Of a stretch of 64,000 nt of DNA, positions 201 to 63,765 are shown piece after piece (the first letter of the stretch is position 1; each line of letters begins with the position of its first letter). The stretch is from an uncultured Holophagales bacterium (lineage in GTDB: Bacteria > Acidobacteriota > Thermoanaerobaculia > Multivoradales > UBA5704), in NCBI GenBank assembly GCA_963741305.1, contig CAVUHL010000003.1, positions 1,434,260 to 1,498,259 on the forward strand, read 5' to 3'. Position numbers and translations under genes: made by a program. The notes below the pieces were generated by a model. That model was not told the origin of the DNA and did not search any database. It saw only the letters and a program-made list of their open reading frames with translations.

Positions 201-1571
201 ATGCGGTACACGAATCGCCCGGTCGGCACAACGGTCCGGGTTAGAGTAACTGATGCTGTCGCGCGCGAACTGATTAAGAAGCCCGAAGCCTGGGACTGGT
301 ATTGCTTGGGCCACCCCAGGGTTGTCCGCCTCGTCGGAATCGAAGCGGCCGAGATTAAACAAAAAGTTTTTTTCGAAAAACCTGGACAAGAGCTTTCCGC
401 TGGATGGCGTCGTGCGCATGACGCTCGATTTGAAGATATTCACTGGACCTTTGACGACGACTACCCTTATAGCCTTCCTTGCCTAACCTGCAACGGCATT
501 ATCATTCAGAAGAATTGGGCTAAGGTACCTCAGGCCCGTTGGCAGGGGATGAATAAGATCCCGATGTCATTCCCCTGTGTCTCTGTTTTTGACCGAGATA
601 TGTTGATGCCGCTTAGCCTTACCAGGGACGGACTGGACGGCGACTCATACCCCTTCGCCGATGCCTTGTTGAAATCAGTCATGATCGACATCATCTCATT
701 TTTATTGGCCGACCCGCAGATTACTATCGGACATCCAGATGAATACTACTATCCGTATCCTAAACGTAATTCTTCGCCGTCACCGAATTCTCTGAGGAAT
801 AGTAAAAGCCATTTTTTTTCGACGAATATGGGATTTGCGCCTGTCACTCCAAGCCTTCTTCGCCAAGCGGGTGCAGGTGTTATTCGCTTATTATTCGGCG
901 GGGGATTCTACCCTCAGGCAATGTGTGCAAAATTGAATATGTCCCCCGGGGAGATTCCAATGCTCCACTGGTGCGCAAACTGGAGTCCACTCGACCCCGA
1001 GTCAAGCAATGATGATGATGACAAGGACACGCCTTTGAGGCAAATGCTGTGCACCATAGCGGCATCATTGGGGCTCCAGATAGCAAGCAGCAATTACGGC
1101 AGCTTTTTTGGCTGCCGATACAATGGCATGAGAATTCTTTCTAGTGAAGCGACTACTCCTCTCATGCCAGATTGGCTGAATCGTCTACCAGAAATCGCTG
1201 TTCGACGCGAACGCGCACAAGAGCGATTTGATGTCTTTGCCGTCGGAGACTGCCCTTCGACATTCACCGATTGGAACTCAATCGTCTCCGTCTTGGCTGG
1301 GGACAGCGATCTGAGATTGCTATGGGGAAGGCCGTTTGATGATGGCGTCTGCAATAGGGAGGGCCAGCAATTTTGCGTGGTAATTGAGCTTTACCTCGAT
1401 GAGTCAACCCCCCTTGAAGAGGATAGATTCAGCGAGCTTTGGCTAGAAATTTTGGGGGTTCCCCTGGTGCCGTTTGATGAAAATCAGCGTCGAACACGGC
1501 TAGACGAAGTTCTCAGTCGACTGCGAGGGTGTGACGTCGCCAATCGGAATAATGCACGTGCCTCCGAATAA
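201..1571 (+). CDS. hypothetical protein (456 aa) in low-GC accessory segment
   Basis: Long ORF with no antisense competitor; GC clearly lower than rest of window (about 50%); no domain I can recognise; adjacent to transposase. Confidence 0.5.
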   Translation: MRYTNRPVGTTVRVRVTDAVARELIKKPEAWDWYCLGHPRVVRLVGIEAAEIKQKVFFEKPGQELSAGWRRAHDARFEDIHWTFDDDYPYSLPCLTCNGIIIQKNWAKVPQARWQGMNKIPMSFPCVSVFDRDMLMPLSLTRDGLDGDSYPFADALLKSVMIDIISFLLADPQITIGHPDEYYYPYPKRNSSPSPNSLRNSKSHFFSTNMGFAPVTPSLLRQAGAGVIRLLFGGGFYPQAMCAKLNMSPGEIPMLHWCANWSPLDPESSNDDDDKDTPLRQMLCTIAASLGLQIASSNYGSFFGCRYNGMRILSSEATTPLMPDWLNRLPEIAVRRERAQERFDVFAVGDCPSTFTDWNSIVSVLAGDSDLRLLWGRPFDDGVCNREGQQFCVVIELYLDESTPLEEDRFSELWLEILGVPLVPFDENQRRTRLDEVLSRLRGCDVANRNNARASE

Positions 1572-1576
1572 GTTCC

Positions 1577-2410
1577 CCGAATACGTTCCGCTTCCGAATA
1601 CGTTCCAGGGGAGTGTAGCGGGAATGTAGAAGAGAACCAGGAAAATCAATCCCACACGTAGTCATGCGCGGTCCTGCTGCGTTTTTCTGGCGGCGTTTTG
1701 GGGCGCTCGGCGCGTAGATTCACCCTGAACGTGGACTCCCATACAAGTTTTTCGAGCTCATTCTCGGCACTTGGACGTAACCTCTCCCTTCCTGGAGTCG
1801 TCCAGCCCTCAAAAGCCTTGACCAGAATCGCTCGGTGACGCCGATCACCGCCTGCTGCGGTGCGGTCGCTCACGCACGGACGAATGGCAGGCCCGGCGGA
1901 AAGCAGCCGTTAGGAAATCTCGCCGTGCGATCGCCGGCTTTGAGCCTCTCCGCGGCTTCACGGAAGGCCGCAAGGAAGAGGCCGTAGGCCTTCAGCCCGA
2001 ATACGTTCCAGGGGAGTGTAGAAGGAATGTAGAAGAGAAACCAGGAAATCAATCCCACACGTAGTCATGCGCGGTTCTGCTGCGCCTTTCAGGCGGCGTT
2101 TTGGGGCACTCGGCACGTAGATTCGCCCTGCACGTGGACTCCCATCCAAGTTTTTGGAGCTCTTTCTCAGCATTCGGACGTACCTCTCCCTCCTGGAGTC
2201 GTCCAGCCCTCGAAAACCTTGATGAGTATCGCTCGGCGACGGCGATCACGGCCTGCTGCGGTGCAGTCGCTCACACACGGACGAAGGGCAGACCCGGCGG
2301 AAAGCAGCCGTTGGGGAATCTCGCAGTGCGATCGCCGGCCTTGAGCCTCTCCGCGGCTTCACGGAAGGCCGCAAGGAAGAGGCCGTAGGCCTTTCGAAAG
2401 GCCTCGCGGG
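1577..2410. repeat. tandem direct duplication, two units of about 415 bp, including the 3' end of the transposase gene
   Basis: Sequence ccgaatacgttccaggggagtgtag...gaatgtagaagagaaccagg at 1578 recurs at 1997; ORF pairs 1646-1873/2049-2249 and 1870-2058/2271-2388 encode near-identical peptides (KAYGLFLAAFREAAERLKAGDRTARFPNGCFPPGLPFVR). Confidence 0.85.
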
Positions 2411-3191
2411 CTGCCTTGCTGGCTGCATGGAAGCGCGGAGCGGGTGACTTCTTCGTCTTGTTGGGACAGGTATGCGGGTGTTGGCGCAGGATGGCCGTCG
2501 TGCCGAGTGGCTCACGGCCTGTGCGCTTCCGTTCCGCCGCGGCATCGGCATCGATCTCGTTCACCAGCCCTGCAACCAGCTCCCGGTACACCTCCGGGCT
2601 GAGGTGACGCCAGCAAGGGAGCTGCGAGAGCACGACGGTCTCCTCCGTCGCATAGCGCCGAGGCTCGAAGTCCTCTCCCCGAAGCCGGGCCCGGTATTCT
2701 GCGGTCCGGTTGAACCAGGTGCCGCGAACGGGCTCGCCGCTGAGCACGGACTTCACCAAGCTGATGCCCGGCCAGTCCTCGACTCGGGCCACCAGCCCTT
2801 CCTTGACCCCGTTGGCCAGCACATAGCGCAGGCGGTCGACCTGCGCCGCGGGCTCGTCGCTGATCACGATCGCCTCGTAGCGCCGCGACCAGATCTTGTC
2901 CCGCCACTTCCTCAGACGGGCGACCTCGCGGGCCACGTTGGTCTGGAAGTAGCCCATGAAGTCGGCCATGCGCTCGGCGTCCGGAACCCGGATCAGGAGA
3001 TGGTAGTGGTTCGAGGCGACAAAGAAGGCCGAGATCTCGACCGGGTGGAGCCGCTGAGCCTGGCCGAGGACGCCGAGCAGGATCTCATTCAGCACTGGGT
3101 CGGGCCGGAGAAGGTAACGGCTCTGGATGGTGCGGCAGGTGATGTCGACGAGGGAGCCTTCTTCTGGGATGAAGCGGGGTGGTCTTGACAT
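2271..3191 (-). CDS. IS200/IS605-family Y1 (HUH) transposase, long RAYT-like form
   Basis: 306 aa; HYHLL (HuH) motif, conserved Y-containing C-terminal region; size and architecture of REP-associated tyrosine transposases; low-GC context. Confidence 0.7.
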   Translation of the reverse strand: MSRPPRFIPEEGSLVDITCRTIQSRYLLRPDPVLNEILLGVLGQAQRLHPVEISAFFVASNHYHLLIRVPDAERMADFMGYFQTNVAREVARLRKWRDKIWSRRYEAIVISDEPAAQVDRLRYVLANGVKEGLVARVEDWPGISLVKSVLSGEPVRGTWFNRTAEYRARLRGEDFEPRRYATEETVVLSQLPCWRHLSPEVYRELVAGLVNEIDADAAAERKRTGREPLGTTAILRQHPHTCPNKTKKSPAPRFHAASKAAREAFRKAYGLFLAAFREAAERLKAGDRTARFPNGCFPPGLPFVRV

Positions 3192-3493
3192 GATGCCCGG
3201 GTAGAGACGGAAAACGGGTCCAAAATGTCATTCCTGGAAATTCTTCAGGATACATCTGACCTGATGAAAGATTGGCCGGAGCTTTGACAGCGCTGGTTTT
3301 CCGCCAGCAGGGCCAGGAGTGGACCGCTGTCAAGGTTCCCTAGACCCGGTTGCGCACGGTAGAATCAGCCGGCAGACCGGAGGGCGACCCGATTCCCTCC
3401 CAACGAAGAAAAGCGTAAACTAGACGTTAGGCTGAAGCTGGTCTTGTTTCGGGTGCCCGCTCGTTGTCGCGCCCCCACGGAGATTTTCCCATC

Positions 3494-22964: not shown

Positions 22965-22972
22965 GGAGAGCC

Positions 22973-23150
22973 CCCCGCAGGGGGCGGCATGTAATAGCCC
23001 GGCACGTGAGTGCCGGGTTTGGGAGATCCAACGCAGTCCAGCCCCGTAGGGGCGGCATACCCGGCATGCCGCCCCTACGGGGCTGGACTCTGTTCCTGCG
23101 CAACGACCCGGCGCTCACGCGCCGGGCTATTTCATGTCGCCCCTGCGGGG
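22973..23150. repeat. compound nested palindrome containing a GTAGGGGCGGC REP-type element; probable bidirectional terminator region between convergent lptE and rpsT
   Basis: Outer 30-bp inverted repeat ccccgcagggggcggcatgtaatagcccggc / gccgggctatttcatgtcgcccctgcgggg; inner hairpins cccggcacgtgagtgccggg, cccggcgctcacgcgccggg; central perfect palindrome ccagccccgtaggggcggcatacccggcatgccgcccctacggggctgg. Confidence 0.8.
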
Positions 23151-23161
23151 CTTAAGACGGC

Positions 23162-30680: not shown

Positions 30681-30865
30681 CAACCCGCGGGTAGAACGTT
30701 GCAACCCGGCTCCGGAATGTTTCAACCGGCGGGTTGAACGTTGTAACCCGCCGGTTGGCCGTCCCAACCCGCGGGTTGAATCATTCCAGCCGGCTCCCGA
30801 ATGATTCCGGAACGTTCGCGAATGATTCCACCCGGCGGTTTGCCTCCTCAACCCGCGGGGGGAAT
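30680..30865. promoter_or_regulatory. array of at least five AACCCGCGGGTT-like palindromes upstream of the EamA/GNAT-aminotransferase operon
   Basis: caacccgcgggtagaacgttgcaacccgg, caaccggcgggttgaacgttgtaacccgccggttgg, caacccgcgggttgaatcattcc, cacccggcggtttg, caacccgcggggggaatgttgcc; spacing about 28-45 bp. Confidence 0.4.
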
Positions 30866-39529: not shown

Positions 39530-40125
39530 GGTGGACCCTATCGGTGATGCGACCAGGAGCTGCGCGCGCGAGACAAACCCATCGCCGTCGCGGCAATCCC
39601 CATTCTGCCGCGACTTTGCCTTAAGTCGCGTCAGAAAGACCCATGGTGCCGCGACTTCAGCCAAAGTCGCGTCACCACAGCCTATCGGTGCCGCGACGAA
39701 ACCTGGAGTCGCGTCAGCAAAAGGATTCGTGACGCGACTATACCCTTCGTCGCGTCACTGTAATTCATCGTCGCGTCACCAAAGCCTATAGTCGCGTCAC
39801 GAAGCTTATGGTCGCGTCAGAAAAGCCTTGAGTCGCGTCATCAATGCTTATGGTCGCGTCGGCAAAGTCTTGAGTCGCGGCAGGAAAACCCGTAGTCGCG
39901 TCGCGAAGCTTATCGCTGACGCGACGATGGGTTGGGTCGCGGCAAAAAAGTCCAGAGTCGCGTCGGCAAAGGCCGGAGTCGCGTCAAAATGCCTTTCGGC
40001 GGGACGCCGAAGCTCTTGCGGCAGACGGCGAAGCCTTGGGTCGCGGCAGAAATGGCCCGGGTCGCATCACGAGAGCTTCGCGCAAGGCGGCGAAGCGTTG
40101 AGTCGCGACAGAAAAGCTCGTTGGC
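39530..40125. repeat. tandem array of about 27 copies of a 21-bp unit with conserved core AGTCGCGTCA (consensus GTCGCGTCANNAAAGCNTTNN)
   Basis: gtcgcgtcaccaaagcctata gtcgcgtcacgaagcttatg gtcgcgtcagaaaagccttga gtcgcgtcatcaatgcttatg gtcgcgtcggcaaagtcttga ...; constant 21-bp period, variable 3' half. Confidence 0.85.
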
Positions 40126-55677: not shown

Positions 55678-57759
55678 ATGAAGATTCGCACCCAGCTCGT
55701 CCTGGCCTTCCTGCTGCTCTCCGTATTACCCCTCACCGGGATCGTCCTCTACTCCTACGCCTCCTCCCAGCGGGCCGTGCGCAAGGTGGTGGAGGCCGAG
55801 GCCGAGGAGCTGACGCAGCAGATGAACGGCCGCATGTCCACGATCCGGGCGGAGCTGGGGCGCAGCGCCGAGCGGGTGGGCGAGATGCAGATGGCCTCGC
55901 TGCTGGATCGGCAGACGGAGGAGGAGCTGGAGAAGGATTTCCCCGAAGTGCTCCGGGCCATGGGCGAATCGGCTTCCCTGGTGGACTCCCTGGAATTCAC
56001 GCCGTCCGTGCCCGCCGCCCCGCCCGCGCCTTCAGCAAAAGCTCCTCCCGCTCCCGAGCTTCCCACTCCCCGCGTGTCCGGCGACCCGACAGCTCTTCCC
56101 GCTTCGCCTGCTCCGCCCGCCCCGCCGCCGATGGTCATCGACGTCCGGGAGATCCTGGCAGAAGTCGAGAGGGCCCATGGAGAGGTCGGAGCCATCCAGG
56201 ACGACCCGGAGATCCAGCGGGTGATCGAGCAGGCGAACCGGATCGCAGCCGAGGCGGTGGCTGGCGGCCGGGTCATCGTCCACTCGACGCCGGAAATGCC
56301 GGACACGTCTGAGAAAAGGGCGGAGCTGGAGAGGAAGGTTCGCCAGGCCGAGGCGCGCAACCGGGAGCTGGAGGCCCGGCTCGAGAAGCAGCGCAGGGAG
56401 ACCCGTCTCCTCATCGGCAAGGACATCGGGGCCCCGGTCAAGGAAGAGGGAGGGCGCGTGGTCGGCTGGGTCCGCGTCCAGGTCCGTCCCGAGGAGATCC
56501 TCAGCCGGGTGCTCGGAAGGACCCAACGCGAGCGAGGGGAGATCCCGTTCGCCGTCGACGCCGAGGGCAACGTCCACACCGCGAACGAGGAAGACCTGCA
56601 GAAGATCAAGGCCCTCCCGATCACCCGGAGCCTGGTCGATTCCTCCCGGCAGATCCTCGACGGCTGGGTCGTCGTGACCTCCAACAAGGACGAAGAGAGC
56701 GGGCTCACCCTCGGCGTGGCGCGGCCGATCCGGCAATCCCTCGAAGAGCTCAGGCGCACCGCGGCGCGCAACTTCGGCTACGGCCTGGCCCTGATCGCCT
56801 TCGCCCTGGTTGGCATCCTGCCGCTGTCGAACCGGATGACCCGGGACGTGGGCGTCCTGCAGCAGGGCGCGGAGCGGATCGCGCAAGGGGACCTGGCGAC
56901 GCGGGTCTCCGTGCGGTCGCGCAACGAGATCGGCGCCCTGGCCACGGCGTTCAACCGCATGGCCGGGGACCTGCGCACCAACCAGGAGAAGCTCGTCGAG
57001 CAGGAGACCGAGCAGCGCCTCCTGCGCAGCGAGTACGAGCGCAAGACCCGCGAGCTGGAAGAGGCCCGCACCTTCCAGCTCTCCCTCCTGCCCAAGACCC
57101 TGCCCGCCCATCCGCGCTTCGAGATCGCCGTCTCCATGCAGACCGCGACCGAGGTCGGAGGCGACTACTACGACTTCCACCTGTCCGAGGACGGCATCCT
57201 GACCACCGCGGTGGGGGATGCCACGGGGCACGGCGCCCGGGCCGGGACGATGGTGACGGTGGTGAAGAGCCTGTTCTCCGCCGACTCCGGAAGGTCCGCG
57301 CCGAGGGACTTCCTGGCCGAGGCCGCCGTGGCCGTGAAGCGCATGGAGCTGGAGCGGATGGCCATGAGCCTGACCCTCGCCCGCATGGATGGGAAGACCC
57401 TCACGCTAGCCGCCGCCGGCATGCCCCCCGCCCTGCTGTACCGCGCCGCATCCCAAGAGGTGGAAGAGATCGCCCTGGAGGGGATGCCGCTGGGCGGTCT
57501 CGCCTACGACTACCAGGAGCTGAGCCTGAAAGTGGCCTCTGGAGACACTCTGCTCCTGATGAGCGACGGTCTCCCCGAGCTGCAGGACGAGCAGGGCGAG
57601 CCCTTCGGCTATCCCCGGGTGCGCCAGGGCTTCCAGGAGCTGGGAAGCTGGACTCCGGAAGAGATCATCGCCGGTCTGGGTGACGCAGCGCGCACCTGGA
57701 CCGGCGGAAAACCCCCCAACGACGACGTGACGTTCGTAGTGCTGCGCTTTAGAGCGTAG
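55678..57759 (+). CDS. membrane sensor with HAMP domain and PP2C-type (SpoIIE/RsbU-like) serine phosphatase domain
   Basis: Two TM helices flanking periplasmic region, HAMP (LQQGAERIAQGDLATRVSVRSRNEIGALATAFNRMAGDL), coiled coil, PP2C motifs (GGDYYDF, GDATGHG, SDGLPE, NDDVT). Confidence 0.8.
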   Translation: MKIRTQLVLAFLLLSVLPLTGIVLYSYASSQRAVRKVVEAEAEELTQQMNGRMSTIRAELGRSAERVGEMQMASLLDRQTEEELEKDFPEVLRAMGESASLVDSLEFTPSVPAAPPAPSAKAPPAPELPTPRVSGDPTALPASPAPPAPPPMVIDVREILAEVERAHGEVGAIQDDPEIQRVIEQANRIAAEAVAGGRVIVHSTPEMPDTSEKRAELERKVRQAEARNRELEARLEKQRRETRLLIGKDIGAPVKEEGGRVVGWVRVQVRPEEILSRVLGRTQRERGEIPFAVDAEGNVHTANEEDLQKIKALPITRSLVDSSRQILDGWVVVTSNKDEESGLTLGVARPIRQSLEELRRTAARNFGYGLALIAFALVGILPLSNRMTRDVGVLQQGAERIAQGDLATRVSVRSRNEIGALATAFNRMAGDLRTNQEKLVEQETEQRLLRSEYERKTRELEEARTFQLSLLPKTLPAHPRFEIAVSMQTATEVGGDYYDFHLSEDGILTTAVGDATGHGARAGTMVTVVKSLFSADSGRSAPRDFLAEAAVAVKRMELERMAMSLTLARMDGKTLTLAAAGMPPALLYRAASQEVEEIALEGMPLGGLAYDYQELSLKVASGDTLLLMSDGLPELQDEQGEPFGYPRVRQGFQELGSWTPEEIIAGLGDAARTWTGGKPPNDDVTFVVLRFRA

Positions 57760-57769
57760 GCAGCGAGCG

Positions 57770-58045
57770 GGGCGGGCTCCGCCCCACTTGGGGGAGCATC
57801 CGCCCTAAATGGGGCGGCGTCCGCCCCGTATGGGGGAGCGATTGCCCCACATGGGGCGAGAGTCGCCCAAAAAAGGGCGAACGCTCCCCCAAGTGGGGGA
57901 GTTACTCCCCCAGCTAGGGCGATGACTGCCCCACATGGGGCGAGCGTTGCCCCATCTGGGGGGAGAGCTCCCCTTTTTGGGGCGGACGTTCCCCCATCTG
58001 GGGCGGACGCTGCCCCACAAAGGGCGAAGACCGCCCCAGATTCCC
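57770..58045. repeat. tandem array of about 13 copies of a 21-bp unit, each containing a GCCCC-N4-GGGGC mini-hairpin
   Basis: ccgccccacttgggggagcat ccgccctaaatggggcggcgt ccgccccgtatgggggagcgat tgccccacatggggcgagagt cgcccaaaaaagggcgaacgct ...; strict 21-bp phase. Confidence 0.85.
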
Positions 58046-58056
58046 GAGCTACTCCC

Positions 58057-58160
58057 CTGGGAGCGCCGGCGTCTCGCCGGCCCACGCTCCCCGCCCCCGA
58101 AGAAGGTCGGGCCTTCGGCCCAATGTTTTTTAGGAAGCCGGCGAGACGCCAGCGCTCCCA
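58057..58160. repeat. hairpin element, second member of the GGGCCTTCGGCCC-core family; includes probable intrinsic terminator for the PP2C gene
   Basis: 25-bp inverted repeat ctgggagcgccggcgtctcgccggc / gccggcgagacgccagcgctcccag flanking cgaagaaggtcgggccttcggcccaatgttttttagg. Confidence 0.75.
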
Positions 58161-58205
58161 GGGGGCTCGCGCGAGCAGAGGAGGAGGGCCGATGCGCGTG
58201 ATATC

Positions 58206-60191
58206 TTGAGAGAAACCTACGACGAGCCCGAATCCATGCCCTCCCACCCCTACGCGCCGAGTCGTTCCCAGAGCGCGCGCCTAGCGATCGACTTGGTCGC
58301 CCCCAAACGCTCGGCTCACGCTTCCATCCGAGGCTATCTGTACCAAGCTTGCGTAGGGGTGGAGCGCTGGCTGTCTCTGAAAGAGGGAGAGGTGCTGCTG
58401 TGTGAGGGCGATGAAGACTTGGACAGACTGCTCTTAGAGGAGGGTTTAGGCGTTATTGAGCAGGTAAAGGTGCGATCTCGGCCGGTCGAAGATCGAGTGC
58501 TGAGGGAGAGCTTGCAACGCTTCGCCGAGACCTTTGTGGCCCTGCGCCAGAGGGGGGAGGACCGCCAATTCGTCTTCATCTGCACAGCAGAGCGGGCCCG
58601 AGCGGGCCGTCGCTTCGACGGGATTGATCCAATGTCGTATTGGCTGGAGGGCGGGGAGAAGCGCTCGGAAGTGGAGCAGGAGACCGCCCGGGGAGCGGTG
58701 CGCCGGTGGCTTGCCCTAGAGACGGAATCGGCTACCAAGGACGGCGGTAACCTCCGGCACCTAGAGGGGGCCCTTGCTTGGCTGGACGGAGAGGTGGGGC
58801 GCTGGAGGGCGTTTCTTGACCGAGTTGAGTGGCGCTTCGGAGCGCCGGACATAGACGGAGTACGGGCCGTGATCGAGGAACGCCTGCAGCAGCGCTCCGA
58901 CGCCAACTCCCTACCCTTGGGTGAGGTCTTGGTGGACTGGCTGGTGAGCCGCGTCTTGAAGGCCTCGAGCCATCCCGGGCCAGTGGAGCGGGTGCTCACC
59001 CGGGAGGGGTTGAACGAACTCTTGGTCGAAGTGGCCGGGGAATTGACGGATTGGAGCCGTCGCCAGGGCTTTAACATCCGACAGGCTTTCAAGGAACTCG
59101 CCGGTCTGGGACCTCTCCTCACGCCAGGCGTTGCCTCGCTGCCTCTAGTGCATACAGACCACGGACAAAGTGGCCTTGTGCCCCCCGGCAAGCTACTGAC
59201 CGCCGCCTATGAGGTGGTTCCATTCGAGGAGGAAGCCCGCGCCGGGGAACTGGGTGAGTTAGAGGCTTGGTGCAACGAGAAGCGGTCTCGGATGGCTTGG
59301 TTATGGACGGGCGAACTAGGTGCTGGTAAAACGCGTTTGGCGATTGAGCTCTGTAGACGCCTAGCTGCCATTGGATGGGAGACAGGATTTCTCCGCTTGG
59401 ACGTGAGGACCGACGACTTGGAATCCCTGGTCCGGGGAGTCCTCCCTCGTTTAGTTGTCGTAGACAATGCTCAGACCCGCCTGGAGCTGTTGAAGGCGGT
59501 GCTCACGCGGGTCGGAGAGGCCCAGGGGCCGCCGAAGTTGCGGCTGCTTCTGCTCGCGCGACAGGCGGGCGCTTGGTGGGGGCTGCTCAAGCTAGCTAGT
59601 AGGGATGCAGAAGATTTGCTCTTGAGTTCCCCCATCGCCAGATCTCTGGGTCCCTTGGTGAAGAACGAAAGGGAGATCCTGGAAGCCTATCGACGAGCAC
59701 TCATCTCTTTTCACGAAATAACACACCAAGCAATGCCGGAGGATTTTTCTCCGCCCGTTTTTTCAGCCGAAGAGGCTCGATTGCCCCTTCTCCTTCACAT
59801 GCGGGCACTGGAGTCTAAAGACGTTGGCACCCTTCCGGGTGCTGACGGCTTGCTTTCCCGCCTTGTTAACCGTGAGAGGATGATCTGGGGAGCTGCCCTT
59901 CAAGATCTTAGGATTCTTTATGGCTCTATCCCTGCTTGTGCAGAGGGGATGATCGAGAAAACGATGGCATCTATTACGATGCTAGGTGGAGTGAGCAATC
60001 AAGTAGAGGCGGAGGCCGTTGCGGAGGCGGCGGGGTCGCATTCACCTGCTGAAAGGCGAGTTATCATAGAAGTGCTTCATCGTCTCTATTCTGGTCCAGA
60101 AGTTGGGGGGCAATTTGTGCAGGCGCTTCAACCGGACCGTCTCGGTGAGGAACTAGTCGCCCAGGTTCTGGGAGGACGCCATGACCGATAA
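58206..60191 (+). CDS. STAND-class P-loop NTPase with about 330-aa N-terminal domain of unknown function (possible PD-(D/E)xK-like nuclease effector)
   Basis: Walker A GELGAGKTRLAIELCRR, Walker B RLVVVDNAQ, helical C-terminus; N-domain motif ...VLLCEGDEDLD...VIEQVKV; GC about 58%, lower than backbone. Confidence 0.6.
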   Translation: MRETYDEPESMPSHPYAPSRSQSARLAIDLVAPKRSAHASIRGYLYQACVGVERWLSLKEGEVLLCEGDEDLDRLLLEEGLGVIEQVKVRSRPVEDRVLRESLQRFAETFVALRQRGEDRQFVFICTAERARAGRRFDGIDPMSYWLEGGEKRSEVEQETARGAVRRWLALETESATKDGGNLRHLEGALAWLDGEVGRWRAFLDRVEWRFGAPDIDGVRAVIEERLQQRSDANSLPLGEVLVDWLVSRVLKASSHPGPVERVLTREGLNELLVEVAGELTDWSRRQGFNIRQAFKELAGLGPLLTPGVASLPLVHTDHGQSGLVPPGKLLTAAYEVVPFEEEARAGELGELEAWCNEKRSRMAWLWTGELGAGKTRLAIELCRRLAAIGWETGFLRLDVRTDDLESLVRGVLPRLVVVDNAQTRLELLKAVLTRVGEAQGPPKLRLLLLARQAGAWWGLLKLASRDAEDLLLSSPIARSLGPLVKNEREILEAYRRALISFHEITHQAMPEDFSPPVFSAEEARLPLLLHMRALESKDVGTLPGADGLLSRLVNRERMIWGAALQDLRILYGSIPACAEGMIEKTMASITMLGGVSNQVEAEAVAEAAGSHSPAERRVIIEVLHRLYSGPEVGGQFVQALQPDRLGEELVAQVLGGRHDR

Positions 60192-63100
60192 AAGGCATGA
60201 GGGAGCCACACTCCCGAGTAAGCTCCTCCAGGTTGGAGGTCCGGCTGGCAGAAAACATCTCCTCACTTCTCTCACTCGTCTTGCCGCAAGGCGCCCTGAA
60301 GCGCGAGGTTGGTTGAAGAGCGCTCTATCGGAAAATTTAAAGGAACTAATGGAACCAGCCGTCTTAGTCGCATTCGAGACAGGCGATCCTATAGGCCAAG
60401 TTCTGGCGGAACTGATTGAGGAGCAAGGGGACGAGCAGATTGTTCGACAGCTGCAAGAACTCTGTGATCAGCCGCAATTTGAGAATTCCATACCTCTGCT
60501 CGAATTAGGCGTGATAGTAACAAAGAAGGTCCTAGAGAGTTACGGGTTAGATTTTTCCTCTGAACCTGCCGATAGGGTGCGGGCTTATGCTCATCTCTTG
60601 GAGAATCTTGCTACCCGCCTTGGAGCCCTGGGTCGACTGGAGGAAGCGCTAGAGCACGCTGAGCATGCCGTGGGTCTCTTTCGGGGTCTGCCCCCCGAGA
60701 CTCCTGATGTAGCAGCCGATTTGGGGAGAAGCTTAACCAACTTGGGCCTCCGTCTCAGTGCTTTAGGTCGTGTAGAGGATGCACTTTCAGCGAGCGAGGA
60801 GTCGATAAGTCTGGTTCGGCAGTCGTCTCGCCTTCAGTTCGCAAATCACGTCAATGTTCAGATCCTGGGTGATAACAACGTCGTCCTCATCGGCAGATCC
60901 CGCCTCGACCTTACGCTCTACCGCGGGCGGAGGGGGGCGGCTTTTTCCTCTCCTGGGGAGGCGGGCGAGGCAGCCGAGGTCCTCAGCCCCTATGCCATGG
61001 CGGTCCCTCTCGTAGGCCGGGAGCGGGAATGGTCCGATCTCTGGACTTGGCTGAACAGCGGCTTGTCTGTATCCATCCGTGTCGTCACCGCGCCTGGCGG
61101 TGGCGGCAAGACGCGCCTTGCACTGGAACTCTGCGAGGAGGCTGTCCGCCGGGGGTGGTACGCCGGCTTCGTGAAGACTACAGCGCCCTTGGACTCTGTT
61201 GCAGGAAAGTTGCCGCGCCCGACGCTCGCTGTGGTGGACTACGCCGCCGCCCGGCTCCCCTGGCTGCGGGAGTGGTTGGCCGACCTCGCCAGTTCGCCGC
61301 CCGTCGGCGGTCCGCTGCGCATCTTACTCCTCGAACGGAACGCTGATCCGGCGTTGGGTTGGTGGGCGGAGACGTTCCGGAGGGGGAGTTGTGGAGATGC
61401 AGCAGTCCGGCACCTGCTGGATCCTGCCGATGGTCCCTACCCACTCCCACCACTTCGCCAGGTGGAACAACGGCGGGCTATCCTAGAAGCAACGCTCCGG
61501 AGCATCGGGAGCGATTTACGGCTACCGACGCGCGAGGAGCACCCGGACTTCGACCGCCAGTTGGCGACGCTGAGTTGGGGTGGCGAGCCGCTCTTTCTTA
61601 TGATGGCTGCCCTTACCGGAGCGAAGTGCGGTCTGGGGCACGTCCTCTCCTTGAATCGGGCAGACCTAGCCTTCGAGGTCGCTCAGCGGCGCGAGTTGAA
61701 CCGGATTAGTCAGATCGGGATGAGCCGCCTAATCTCAGAGTCTTTGGTCTGCCACATGGCGGCCTACGTGACCCTCTGCCAAGGACTTACGCGCGAGCAA
61801 GCGGAGGTAGCAATTGTAGTTGAGGACGAGGCATTGCGGCACGATCGTCTCAGTGATCCGCTGGTGATCTACGGGGCTCTGTACAACGCCCTTCCTGGAG
61901 CCGGGAATGCCATCGCGCCCATTCTGCCTGATGTGGTCGGGGAGGCTGCAATCTTGATGGCGCTCGGCGAGATGGATTTGGCAAAGGCTAGCGAGGCGGT
62001 CGTCCGAGCAGCAAACCAGGCACCGGAAAGGGTAGCAGCGACTGTGATGCGGATGGTCCAGGACTTCGGTGATTACGATAGCCGGCCAATAGAATGGCTG
62101 AACCGACTGACCGAAGACGTTATCGATTTAGAGGGATTGAAGAGGCTCGTTGGTCAGTTGCCAGAGAAGACTATAGTATTACGCGAGTTCTCTGCTAAAG
62201 TGATGGCGGCGCTGCTCGAGCGACTCCGTGGGGAAGGCGAAAAGGAAGGCATAGCTCTAGCCAGCAATAATCTTTCTATATATCTGGCCTCCCTTGGCCG
62301 TAGAGAAGAGGCGTTGGAGGCAGTGCAAGAGGCGGTTTTCCTATACCGTGATTTAGAGCAGTTCCGTCCTGATGTGTTCGGCCCCGACCTTGCAACATCG
62401 CTCAACAACCTATCCAATAGTCTGAGCGAACTTGGCCATAGTGAAGAGGCTTTGGTGGCGGTGCAAGAGGCGGCTTCCCTATACCGGAATCTAGCGCAGT
62501 CGCGTCCTGATGCGTTCGGGCCAGACCTCGCAACATCTCTCAACAACCTGTCCAACCGTCTGAGCGATCTCGGACGTCGTGAAGAGGCTTTGGAGTCAGT
62601 GCAAGAGGCGGTTGCCCTATACCGGAATCTAGTGCAGTTCCGTCCTGATGCATTCGGTCCGGATCTCGCGACATCTCTCAGCAACTTGTCCAACCGCCTG
62701 AGCGATCTCGGTAGGCTGGAGGAGGCTTTTAACTCGGTACAGGAGGCTGTAGATCTGTACCGTGAGCTGTCGTTTTTGCGACCCGATGCTTACCGTCCAG
62801 ACTTTGCGACGTCTCTCAACAACCTATCCAACCGCCTAAGCGCCCTTGGCCATCGCGAAGAGGCATTGGCGGTCGTGCAGGAGGCGGTGGATGTGTACCG
62901 CGAGCTTTCGCAGGCTCGTCCCGACGCGTTCTATCCGAATCTTGCGCTATCACTCAACAACCTTTCCAATCATCTGAGCGCTCTTGGCCGTCAAGAAGAG
63001 GCTCTGGAGGCCGTGCAGGAGGCATTAGCTGTATATCGTGAGCTTTCTCAGTCTCGTCCCGACGCGTTCCGTCCGGACACGGCGAAGTCGCTCAACAACT

Positions 63101-63765
63101 TGTCGAATTATCTGCGCGCTCTTGGCCGTCCTGAAGAGGCTCTAAGGGCTGTCGAGGAGTCGGTGGCTGTATACCGTGAGCTTGCGCCATTGCGTCCGGA
63201 GGCATTTCGTCCGTACTTGGCAATTTCGCTCAACAACCTATCTGTTCATCTGAGCGCTCTTGGCCGACGTGAAGAGTCGCTGGAGACAGTAGAGGAGGCA
63301 GTGGATGTCTATCGCGAACTTTCGCGGTCCCGTCCTGATGCGTTCCGGACGGATCTTGCGACGTCGCTCAACAATCTTTCCAATCGGCTGAGCGATCTTA
63401 GCCGCCGTGAAGAGGCTCTGGCGGCAGTGCATGAGTCAGTGGCCATCCGGCGCGAGCTTTCGCAGTCCCGTCCTGATGCGTTCCGGCCGGACCTTGCCTC
63501 CTCTCTCCACAACGTTGCCCTCCGGCTGCAGGAACTTGGCAGGCTTGGTGAAGCGCTGGAGGCCTCGGAAGAGGCCGTCCGCATGCTCCTGCCTTTCTTC
63601 CAAGCGCTTCCGGCAGCTTTTCGGGGCTGGATGACATGGATGACCAGCTTGTATCAGAAGTTATCGGTGGAGAATGGCCGACAACCCGATCCCGAGCTGA
63701 TCCAAGCGATCGCCTCTTCATCGGAGCGAGTCGAGCCTTCTTCTGACCCAGGGAGCCCATCATGA
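60181..63765 (+). CDS. STAND-class P-loop NTPase with two N-terminal and about eleven C-terminal TPR (TPR_10/12-like) repeats
   Basis: ATG overlapping upstream stop by 11 nt; Walker A VVTAPGGGGKTRLALELCEE, Walker B TLAVVDYAA; eleven 42-aa repeats SLNNLSNRLSxLGRxEEALxxVQEAVxLYRELSQSRPDAFRPDLAT. Confidence 0.7.
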   Translation: MTDKRHEGATLPSKLLQVGGPAGRKHLLTSLTRLAARRPEARGWLKSALSENLKELMEPAVLVAFETGDPIGQVLAELIEEQGDEQIVRQLQELCDQPQFENSIPLLELGVIVTKKVLESYGLDFSSEPADRVRAYAHLLENLATRLGALGRLEEALEHAEHAVGLFRGLPPETPDVAADLGRSLTNLGLRLSALGRVEDALSASEESISLVRQSSRLQFANHVNVQILGDNNVVLIGRSRLDLTLYRGRRGAAFSSPGEAGEAAEVLSPYAMAVPLVGREREWSDLWTWLNSGLSVSIRVVTAPGGGGKTRLALELCEEAVRRGWYAGFVKTTAPLDSVAGKLPRPTLAVVDYAAARLPWLREWLADLASSPPVGGPLRILLLERNADPALGWWAETFRRGSCGDAAVRHLLDPADGPYPLPPLRQVEQRRAILEATLRSIGSDLRLPTREEHPDFDRQLATLSWGGEPLFLMMAALTGAKCGLGHVLSLNRADLAFEVAQRRELNRISQIGMSRLISESLVCHMAAYVTLCQGLTREQAEVAIVVEDEALRHDRLSDPLVIYGALYNALPGAGNAIAPILPDVVGEAAILMALGEMDLAKASEAVVRAANQAPERVAATVMRMVQDFGDYDSRPIEWLNRLTEDVIDLEGLKRLVGQLPEKTIVLREFSAKVMAALLERLRGEGEKEGIALASNNLSIYLASLGRREEALEAVQEAVFLYRDLEQFRPDVFGPDLATSLNNLSNSLSELGHSEEALVAVQEAASLYRNLAQSRPDAFGPDLATSLNNLSNRLSDLGRREEALESVQEAVALYRNLVQFRPDAFGPDLATSLSNLSNRLSDLGRLEEAFNSVQEAVDLYRELSFLRPDAYRPDFATSLNNLSNRLSALGHREEALAVVQEAVDVYRELSQARPDAFYPNLALSLNNLSNHLSALGRQEEALEAVQEALAVYRELSQSRPDAFRPDTAKSLNNLSNYLRALGRPEEALRAVEESVAVYRELAPLRPEAFRPYLAISLNNLSVHLSALGRREESLETVEEAVDVYRELSRSRPDAFRTDLATSLNNLSNRLSDLSRREEALAAVHESVAIRRELSQSRPDAFRPDLASSLHNVALRLQELGRLGEALEASEEAVRMLLPFFQALPAAFRGWMTWMTSLYQKLSVENGRQPDPELIQAIASSSERVEPSSDPGSPS

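Follow-up and report, generated by a model that had tools for sequence, protein, structure and literature searches.

A conserved 21-bp tandem repeat array just past the stop codon of a PP2C-type sensor gene in an uncultured Holophagales bacterium

Unit anatomy, orthologous arrays and purifying selection

We analyzed a 64,000-nucleotide stretch of DNA, hereafter called the window, from an uncultured Holophagales bacterium of the Thermoanaerobaculia (phylum Acidobacteriota; GenBank assembly GCA_963741305.1, contig CAVUHL010000003.1), and focused on a tandem array lying between the gene for a HAMP-SpoIIE (PP2C-type) sensor phosphatase (hereafter the PP2C gene) and a low-GC STAND-like open reading frame (ORF). 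An earlier note on this DNA, made from the letters alone, had described 13 tandem hairpin units with a 21-bp period at this place. Both the array and its position between the two genes were borne out, by Tandem Repeats Finder (TRF) and by the ORF map and Pfam, respectively (Table 1). The array is intergenic, starting 10 bp past the PP2C stop codon (57757–57759), with the next ORF beginning at 58206, and its 13 units, each of exactly 21 bp (273 bp in total), follow one another head to tail without a single insertion or deletion between them. TRF, an analysis that the note had called for, assigned periods of 21 and 42, and the autocorrelation of the array at lag 21 was 0.64, against a background of 0.27 ± 0.09. 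Identity between units within the array averaged 0.62. Four-unit and five-unit lattice patterns gave 10 and 19 matches in the array, respectively, and none in 100 dinucleotide-preserving shuffles of the window.

In the register of the window, the unit reads G-GGG-S-R-R-NNN-Y-Y-S-CCC-Y-A-NN-T, with GGG at positions 2–4 and CCC at positions 14–16 in all units, so that a CCC-spacer-GGG inverted repeat occurs at every junction. To describe the unit, we combined the window's units with those of three orthologues, 53 in all and of one subtype, and numbered them from the invariant GGG; units of one array are non-independent samples. The consensus is GGG-S-R-R-NNN-Y-Y-S-CCC-Y-A-NN-T-G, in which GGG and CCC were essentially invariant and the adjoining positions were limited to a base class: C or G at position 4, A or G at positions 5–6, C or T at positions 10–11 and C or G at position 12. 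Positions 7–9 and 18–19 were essentially free, and the lengths of these two free centers, 3 nt and 2 nt, were constant in 53/53 units. The array is thus a series of 26 inverted 8-bp half-sites (T-R-GGG-S-R-R), with gaps of 3 and 2 free bases alternating, at a frequency of one half-site per 10.5 bp. The linkers of the window read ACTT, AAAT, GTAT, ACAT and so on. Unit 10, the only one with a T-run, is the sole unit that resembles an intrinsic terminator; its form GAGCTCCCCTTTTT is shared with the orthologous array L217, and its counterpart in L222 is GAGCTCCCCTTTGT.

Homologues of the PP2C protein likewise assigned the window to the Thermoanaerobaculia. Arrays of this kind followed the PP2C gene at other loci (numbered with the prefix L), and the array in L001, from a second sample, was identical to that of the window. 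L002–4, with PP2C genes 88% identical to that of the window over the full length, carried 12 units; L006 carried 10 and L007/L008 carried 16 (72% identity, full length) between near-identical flanks, a difference that may reflect assembly collapse. Where identity refers to the C-terminal domain, L217 and L222 (both 94%) had 14 units each, L218 about 11 and L220 about 9 (both 93%), and L219 (93%) showed a 20/21-nt alternation. PP2C orthologues below about 70% identity had no such array in the flank examined. In a MAFFT alignment of four lineages, represented by the window, L217, L222 and L002, the array units corresponded one to one, and lengths differed only by two gaps, each of exactly 21 nt, and by a 1-nt deletion in L217. 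The array evolves by gain and loss of whole units.

We then compared divergence among classes of positions. Pairwise divergence was 0.00–0.03 at GGG/CCC, 0.23–0.29 at class-restricted positions and 0.38–0.45 at free positions, compared with 0.13–0.21 at third codon positions of PP2C, the gene next to the array. None of 72 block sites differed between the window and L002, where 9–27 changes were expected. These results indicate that the GGG/CCC triplets, as well as the unit length, are under purifying selection, and hence that the array serves a function, or at the very least is being actively maintained. The earlier note had proposed a lineage-specific mechanism that generates such arrays. This was not borne out: units that are orthologous across species and under purifying selection point to maintenance by selection rather than continual generation.

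To find family members elsewhere, a three-unit pattern was searched against one genome per species, and at least 120 stretches matched. Among the matches listed, clear members were L113, L141 and L159 (Thermoanaerobaculia) and L165 (gp7), all from Acidobacteriota; the other matches listed were near-identical tandem repeats from other phyla. A similar-looking candidate, L179, was dropped as Streptomyces. Family arrays abut the stop codons of thiC (L159), an amine-oxidase gene (L165) and convergent genes (L113). At the PP2C, thiC and L113 loci the array starts 0–30 bp past the stop codon (9–23 bp past that of thiC in two metagenome-assembled genomes, MAGs), and the arrays at L113, L159 and L297 sit between convergent genes. 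Polarity relative to the upstream gene is ambiguous, since the thiC array lies between convergent genes.

As for dispersed copies, GGGCGRNNNYYGCCC had no other copy in the window and GCCCCANNTGGGGC had only one one-mismatch match outside the array, and periodicity and TRF scans of about 450 kb of more distant Thermoanaerobaculia loci revealed no further family array. At least two family loci per genome were present in two MAGs. The family is a low-copy one, unlike repetitive extragenic palindromes (REPs).

Other, independent arrays supplied the reference matrices against which we scored the arrays of these MAGs. In GCA_034667225.1, the PP2C array (L002, +17.7 bits per unit) and the thiC array (L297, 12 units, 9 bp after thiC; +16.1 bits per unit) were both of subtype I. 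In the DATMER MAG, the PP2C array (L006, −7.3 bits per unit) and the thiC array (L159, −10.7 bits per unit) were both of subtype II, which has the consensus GGGCGG-ANR-CYG-TCCC-TCRAR. Such concerted change at unlinked loci, seen in two genomes, suggests that the repeat co-evolves with a trans-acting reader. GTAG-like linkers were sporadic, occurring only in L141 and L219. Across the thiC array, a conserved gene of about 126 aa without a Pfam match is convergent with thiC in both MAGs (L297, 6035–6415, minus strand; L159, 5044–5418, plus strand); in a third relative, thiC is followed by a gene that matches the 126-aa one in size and orientation, with a toxin–antitoxin (TA) pair inserted between it and thiC.

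Surroundings of the array

The PP2C gene is the conserved neighbor of the array. On the other side, the window, L002, L217 and L222 have in common a 15-bp flank, TTCCCGAGCTACTCC, just past which similarity to the relatives stops and window-specific DNA starts. The earlier note had reported a terminator-like hairpin downstream of the array; it is present as a stem-loop with a T-run, enclosed by a 129-nt hairpin of which there is no second copy within the window. This long hairpin stands at the border of the low-GC STAND/TPR island, and may be a scar or an end of the inserted island.

The island itself is variable and missing at most orthologous loci, and is context outside the element. The gene 3′ of PP2C and the array is ABC2/peptidase M1 in L002 and STAND/TPR in the window. 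L005 has a TA pair directly after PP2C, L006–8 have TPR and TA genes beyond the array, and in L006–8 and L222 a DUF8196-like gene (189 aa) is inserted between PP2C and the array. Because most orthologous array loci are without the STAND operon, and adjoin ABC2/peptidase-M1 or other genes instead, the array belongs to the 3′ end of PP2C, and a link to the STAND operon, next to which the earlier note had placed it, is spurious.

The 3′ side of PP2C is a variable hotspot, holding STAND/TPR genes, ParE/antitoxin pairs, TPR genes or DUF8196-like genes, with nothing extra in L002. Directly after the array of L002 (12325–12445) lies a long REPIN-like hairpin whose arms open with CTGTAGGGGCGGG, bearing a GTAG tag; classical REP/RAYT-type elements may therefore also occur in this clade. 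Two further observations in the window, a tandem duplication and a pair of Rfam motifs, are entered in Table 1.

Table 1. Features of the window and of related contigs, with positions on each sequence
Feature	Position	Strand	Basis and remarks
HAMP-SpoIIE (PP2C-type) sensor phosphatase gene, upstream of the array	55678..57759	+	Pfam, orthologues and their loci
Tandem array, 13 head-to-tail units of exactly 21 bp	57769..58041	not assigned (.)	Layout, TRF, autocorrelation
Unit 10, GGGGGGAGAGCTCCCC then TTTTT	57958..57982	+	Terminator scan, alignment columns 235–255
Conserved 3′ flank TTCCCGAGCTACTCC (15 bp)	58042..58056	+	Common to L002, L217, L222
Long hairpin, 129 nt, 37-nt arms 86% complementary	58045..58173	+	Inverted-repeat scan; −92 kcal/mol, z = −6.55
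Terminator-like stem-loop and T-run	58105..58131		Within the 129-nt hairpin
STAND-like ORF (58206–60191) and TPR ORF (60181–63765)	58206..63765	+	GC 0.55–0.64; low-GC island
Array of about 18 copies of GTCGCGTCA with A-rich spacer	39599..39989		Period 21; downstream of amidohydrolase gene
Array of CAACCCGCGGGTTG and AACGTTG (14-bp palindrome and 7-bp spacer)	30681..30860		Period 21
Tandem duplication, 401 bp	1594..2393		2.0 copies, 91% identity; lower-GC stretch at window start
Acido-Lenti-1 RNA motif, two divergent copies	22969..23017; 23107..23152	−; +	Rfam; 49 and 61.7 bits, gathering score 37
L257 array, AGTGATCGATGACT + 7/8	397..826		21/22 alternation; non-coding
L264 array, GGCATGCACAAGGGAGGCTCC x13	3157..3431		Non-coding
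L223 array, ACCGTC...GCAAC	2107..2217		Non-coding

Pairing tests and the level of action

The earlier note had given each unit a 5-bp stem and a 4-nt loop, GCCCC-N4-GGGGC. The inverted repeat that this implies does recur at every junction in its CCC-spacer-GGG form, but the exact sequence GCCCC-N4-GGGGC was found at 2/12 junctions and CCCC-N4-GGGG at 7/12. The alternative, G-block-first register (GGGSRR-N3-YYSCCC) was more stable, with a summed energy of −133.9 kcal/mol versus −94.6 kcal/mol for CCCC-loop-GGGG, and the latter showed no covariation in the alignment (83.4% of cells paired versus 83.5% in shuffles; 331/500). Each of the 13 units folds, with energies between −4.9 and −15.3 kcal/mol; the fold predicted for the whole array was uninformative, as long-range pairings dominated it. 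A cruciform ladder, one of two structures that the note had envisaged, would be implausible with stems of 3–5 bp.

Evidence for pairing as such was then sought in both registers. The halves of a unit matched each other no better than halves of different units (2.16 versus 2.13 of 3 inner pairs; permutation p = 0.17), and Fisher tests at pairs (4,12), (5,11) and (6,10) were not significant in either register. Pair (4,12) was mismatched in 20/53 units (38%), and was broken through one-sided changes in 9/14 orthologous units. In the alignment, 85.1% of cells were paired in the G-block-first register versus 84.1% in shuffles (52/500). Slid controls, with the partner moved by 1–3 columns, were 49–65% paired; since both registers lie far above these, complementarity is a property of the consensus. 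Compensatory stems, apparent by eye, were unsupported by permutation, Fisher and orthologue tests in both registers. We also rejected an asymmetry between G·T and A·C as evidence for an RNA strand, because it runs in opposite directions at (5,11) and (6,10) and is explained by marginal base frequencies.

Taken together, these findings are best explained by a functional repeat element that acts in cis, is present in low copy number in Thermoanaerobaculia and related Acidobacteriota, and is situated just past stop codons. As for how it acts, we tentatively favor a platform of duplex DNA that offers one half-site per helical turn to an oligomerizing binder. The earlier note had raised a helical-face binding platform as its other possibility, and this agrees best with the data, in view of the exact spacing and of base classes that are limited without covariation of pairs, as a duplex half-site reading predicts. 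Class-restricted positions that mismatch freely, together with free centers of fixed length, fit such a reading better than they fit selection for stem stability. We infer action at the DNA level, and likewise the existence and nature of a binder; the data directly show the array itself, its conservation, the purifying selection, the turnover of whole units and the genome-specific subtypes.

The mechanism we propose would run as follows. Selection preserves the lattice, that is, the invariant GGG/CCC, the class-restricted adjoining positions and the fixed centers of 3 and 2 bases. A dyad-symmetric, oligomerizing protein would assemble cooperatively along one face of the helix on the phased array. 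Candidate binders would be nucleoid, topology or roadblock-type factors, by analogy with gyrase on BIME-2 and with initiators and centromere proteins on iterons and parC. Judging from the position at gene ends, the complex might serve as a transcriptional roadblock or boundary, as a gyrase or nucleoid platform, or as a titration site, and the specificity of the binder would drift and co-evolve with the repeat. Transcripts across the array would also fold into a string of GC-rich hairpins, which may protect the 3′ end of the mRNA or attenuate read-through.

Several points weigh against a duplex platform. The dyad symmetry fits a hairpin in RNA or single-stranded DNA equally well, and a tandem palindrome necessarily has two dyads per period. 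A place just after stop codons or between convergent genes is the classic one for RNA 3′-end elements. In the G-block-first register there was a weak trend toward covariation, with 9 double-sided pair changes versus 6.3 expected (46/500), and G·U-compatible states dominate pair (5,11), where GT occurs 22 times and AC 3 times. The period is not strictly 21, as the alternations at L219 (20/21) and L257 (21/22) show. Neither a candidate binding protein nor a conserved adjacent partner gene was found among the loci examined, and a screen of the neighboring proteins as candidate binders gave nothing suggestive. The concordance of subtypes comes from two genomes only, and gene conversion between loci, a less likely alternative, could yield it.

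Some of these points suit an element that acts as RNA, a close rival that we consider somewhat less probable. Here the array would be transcribed as the 3′ untranslated region (UTR) of the gene before it, or of both genes where these converge, and would fold into 10–16 GC-rich hairpins (GGGSRR-N3-YYSCCC) that block 3′–5′ exonucleases, attenuate read-through or do both, as E. coli REP does, and an RNA-binding protein would explain the subtypes. The distance of 0–30 bp from stop codons, the convergent arrangement of some loci, the ability of all 13 units to fold and the excess of paired cells (85% versus 49–65% when slid) are as expected for this, and pair (5,11) has the states GC, GU and AU, with AC rare; some G·U pairs are invariant in four lineages. 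Moreover, PP2C transcripts should run through the array, because the only canonical terminator is located beyond it, and REP325 of E. coli acts as both terminator and stabilizer (bioRxiv 10.64898/2026.03.23.713779). By contrast, covariation was not significant, and 38% of units have a mismatch at the mid-stem pair (4,12) although both of its positions are limited to C or G. The loop length is constant, the wobble asymmetry is opposite at (5,11) and (6,10), and arrays unrelated in sequence, some of them not palindromic, have the same 21-bp period.

It is unlikely that the array is a selfish or domesticated element of the REP/BIME type, in which single-stranded DNA hairpins would be recognized and tandemly amplified by a genome-encoded HUH (RAYT-like) enzyme, so that conservation and subtypes would reflect enzyme specificity and not host function. 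The units are extragenic, palindromic and tandem, their number differs among relatives, and genome-specific sequence classes are a signature of REP–RAYT systems (PMC3333891, PMC3733652). Small REPs with 5-bp stems form tandem clusters in Thauera (PMC3733652), and the REPIN-like GTAG hairpin adjoins the L002 array. However, the units of the window lack a GTAG or CGTC tag and compensatory stem variation, and they are old and orthologous, not recently amplified. There were no single copies elsewhere in the window and no further array in about 450 kb of related loci; no RAYT gene was seen, although no search aimed at RAYT was made.

Still less probable is that the array has no sequence-specific function and is a neutral minisatellite or a hotspot for recombination or integration, in which case it would mark or create a fragile site for island insertion. 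DNA is indeed variable on both sides of it (the STAND/TPR island, the DUF8196-like gene and the TA pairs of L005–L008), and in another relative thiC, too, is followed by TA genes. However, the strong purifying selection that acts on GGG/CCC and unit length contradicts neutrality, insertions have no fixed position within the array, and neither an integrase gene nor direct-repeat att scars were seen. Finally, we regard as highly improbable a coding heptad repeat (read-through of PP2C, or the minus-strand ORF 57609–58247) or a CRISPR-like guide array: 21 bp equal 7 codons, one frame stays open past the PP2C stop and a 212-aa minus-strand ORF spans the array, but stops interrupt 4/6 frames, those without stops are open by construction (CCA NNT GGG), the best of them has a third-position GC content of 0.60–0.62 versus 0.88 for PP2C, the 1-nt deletion of L217 and the alternating 20/21-nt units of L219 shift the frame, so that a coding extension is effectively refuted, and there are neither spacers nor cas genes.

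Known repeat families and the 21-bp period

The nearest known kind of repeat is REP/BIME-2, for which roles have been proposed at the DNA level (gyrase, IHF) and at the RNA level (stabilizer, terminator) (PMC3333891, PMC3733652, bioRxiv 10.64898/2026.03.23.713779); E. coli REP325 was shown to be a 3′-UTR stabilizer and terminator (bioRxiv 10.64898/2026.03.23.713779). Like REPs, the units are short, GC-rich, extragenic palindromes, imperfect but capable of forming a stem-loop (GGGSRR-N3-YYSCCC is dyad-symmetric), and lie after the 3′ ends of genes or between convergent genes. Like BIME-2, they are arrayed in tandem, up to about a dozen at a time, in numbers that vary between relatives at a locus, as seen in the whole-unit gaps between orthologues, and they fall into genome-specific sequence classes. 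Unlike REPs, which are 20–40 nt long with linkers, the units are 21 bp with no linker; they have no GTAG/CGTC tag and, in the window, no dispersed single copies, and their copy number is low, whereas REPs are scattered through a genome as single units or dimers in tens to hundreds of copies. They are about 62% identical within the array yet orthologous across species, their stems show no compensatory changes, and the host belongs to the Acidobacteriota. The features tested here that define REP/BIME-2 are thus lacking. The array belongs to no described repeat family, and we place it among arrays of extragenic palindromic repeats.

The iteron and centromere arrays that plasmids and phages carry (R6K/pPS10-type, lambda ori, R1 parC, pSK41 parC and F sopC) have sites spaced by about 11, 20–22 or 43 bp. 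These sites are often palindromic, and dimers bind them cooperatively on one face, building a higher-order nucleoprotein complex. The array resembles them in having tandem sites at integral helical turns (21 bp × 13 units). It differs in being chromosomal, among housekeeping genes and conserved across species, and no Rep, ParB or ParR gene is adjacent, the neighbors being PP2C, STAND/TPR, ABC2–peptidase M1 and thiC; its units are also far more diverged than iterons and number 10–16, versus typically 3–7. A further parallel is offered by the Sal-box repeats of mouse rDNA, tandem terminator-protein boxes that are bound by TTF-I and act as roadblocks downstream of a transcription unit. The array likewise consists of tandem boxes just downstream of a transcription unit, and by analogy might also work as a roadblock; Sal boxes are eukaryotic, however, and not dyad-symmetric.

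Other kinds of element fit less well. CRISPR arrays have 23–55-nt repeats and unique spacers of comparable length, whereas the array has 3 + 2 unconstrained bases per 21-bp unit, and no cas domains were found in the neighboring ORFs. As a row of intrinsic terminators it would lack T-runs in every unit except unit 10, and the canonical terminator lies outside it. Rfam gave nothing at the gathering threshold in the array; permissive E-values yielded only spurious, sub-threshold matches to miRNA precursors.

We next considered the period itself. The earlier note had pointed to an unrelated array of the same 21-bp phase in the window, and this was confirmed for the GTCGCGTCA array at 39.6–40.0 kb, which consists mostly of direct repeats, with inverted pairs in its left part. 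A third array, of CAACCCGCGGGTTG, lies just upstream of and overlapping the start of an EamA transporter gene, after a small RHH-like ORF. Further non-coding arrays with unrelated motifs and 21- or 43-bp periods were found at L257, L264 and L223, on metagenome contigs with PP2C homologues of 55–67% identity. Some of these families are not palindromic (the window array at 39.7 kb and L264), and thus their common feature is the two-turn period, not the hairpin.

In 535 kb of Thermoanaerobaculia-like DNA, 16/19 TRF rows with a period above 12 had periods of 21, 42, 63, 41 or 43; in the control loci, 842 kb from other phyla, periods were spread over multiples of three. Among arrays not selected by the search, 6/9 fell in the 21-bp period family versus 7/59 in controls (Fisher p = 0.001), which speaks against the possibility, raised in the earlier note, that these arrays are satellite of random period. 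In this lineage, 21 is clearly the preferred period.

A loose lattice pattern searched against viral contigs gave 88 matches, mostly near-identical repeats unrelated to the family, and a few palindromic arrays. The phage contigs L041, L042, L047, L070 and L090 carry near-identical 21-bp arrays of 14–15-bp palindromes. That of L041 (10834–10960) lies between genes for a DnaB-like helicase and a DnaC-like loader, as expected for an iteron origin; arrays of this kind can thus occupy places where one expects a protein platform. Separately, we observed adjacent pairs of micro-arrays with 8–9-bp units at L240 (5549–5643), L260 (1495–1616) and L276 (5373–5481); the units in L240 and L276 are near mutual reverse complements, for example GTTGGTCC x4.5 followed by GACCAACG x5.

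To our knowledge, the non-coding elements of Acidobacteriota are almost uncharted. The array described here is low-copy and positionally conserved, and the marks of selection on it are unusually clear, in that its triplets are invariant, its spacing is exact and unlinked loci share a genome-specific subtype. A wider hypothesis, which we regard as doubtful, is that Thermoanaerobaculia have a new class of two-turn (21-bp), phase-locked architectural arrays, with several unrelated families per genome, each with a co-evolving oligomerizing reader, serving as transcriptional or topological boundaries at 3′ ends or arising from a dedicated lineage-specific mechanism; the G3/C3 array would be its best-conserved member. 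Should a protein read the array as duplex DNA, iteron and centromere platforms would have a chromosomal counterpart, which could be a new boundary or topology element of gene ends. If the array acts as RNA, REP-like control from the 3′ UTR would reach into a distant phylum, in repeats that are built very differently. In both cases, the co-variation between loci offers a practical route to the trans-acting partner, by phylogenetic profiling of gene families against subtype.

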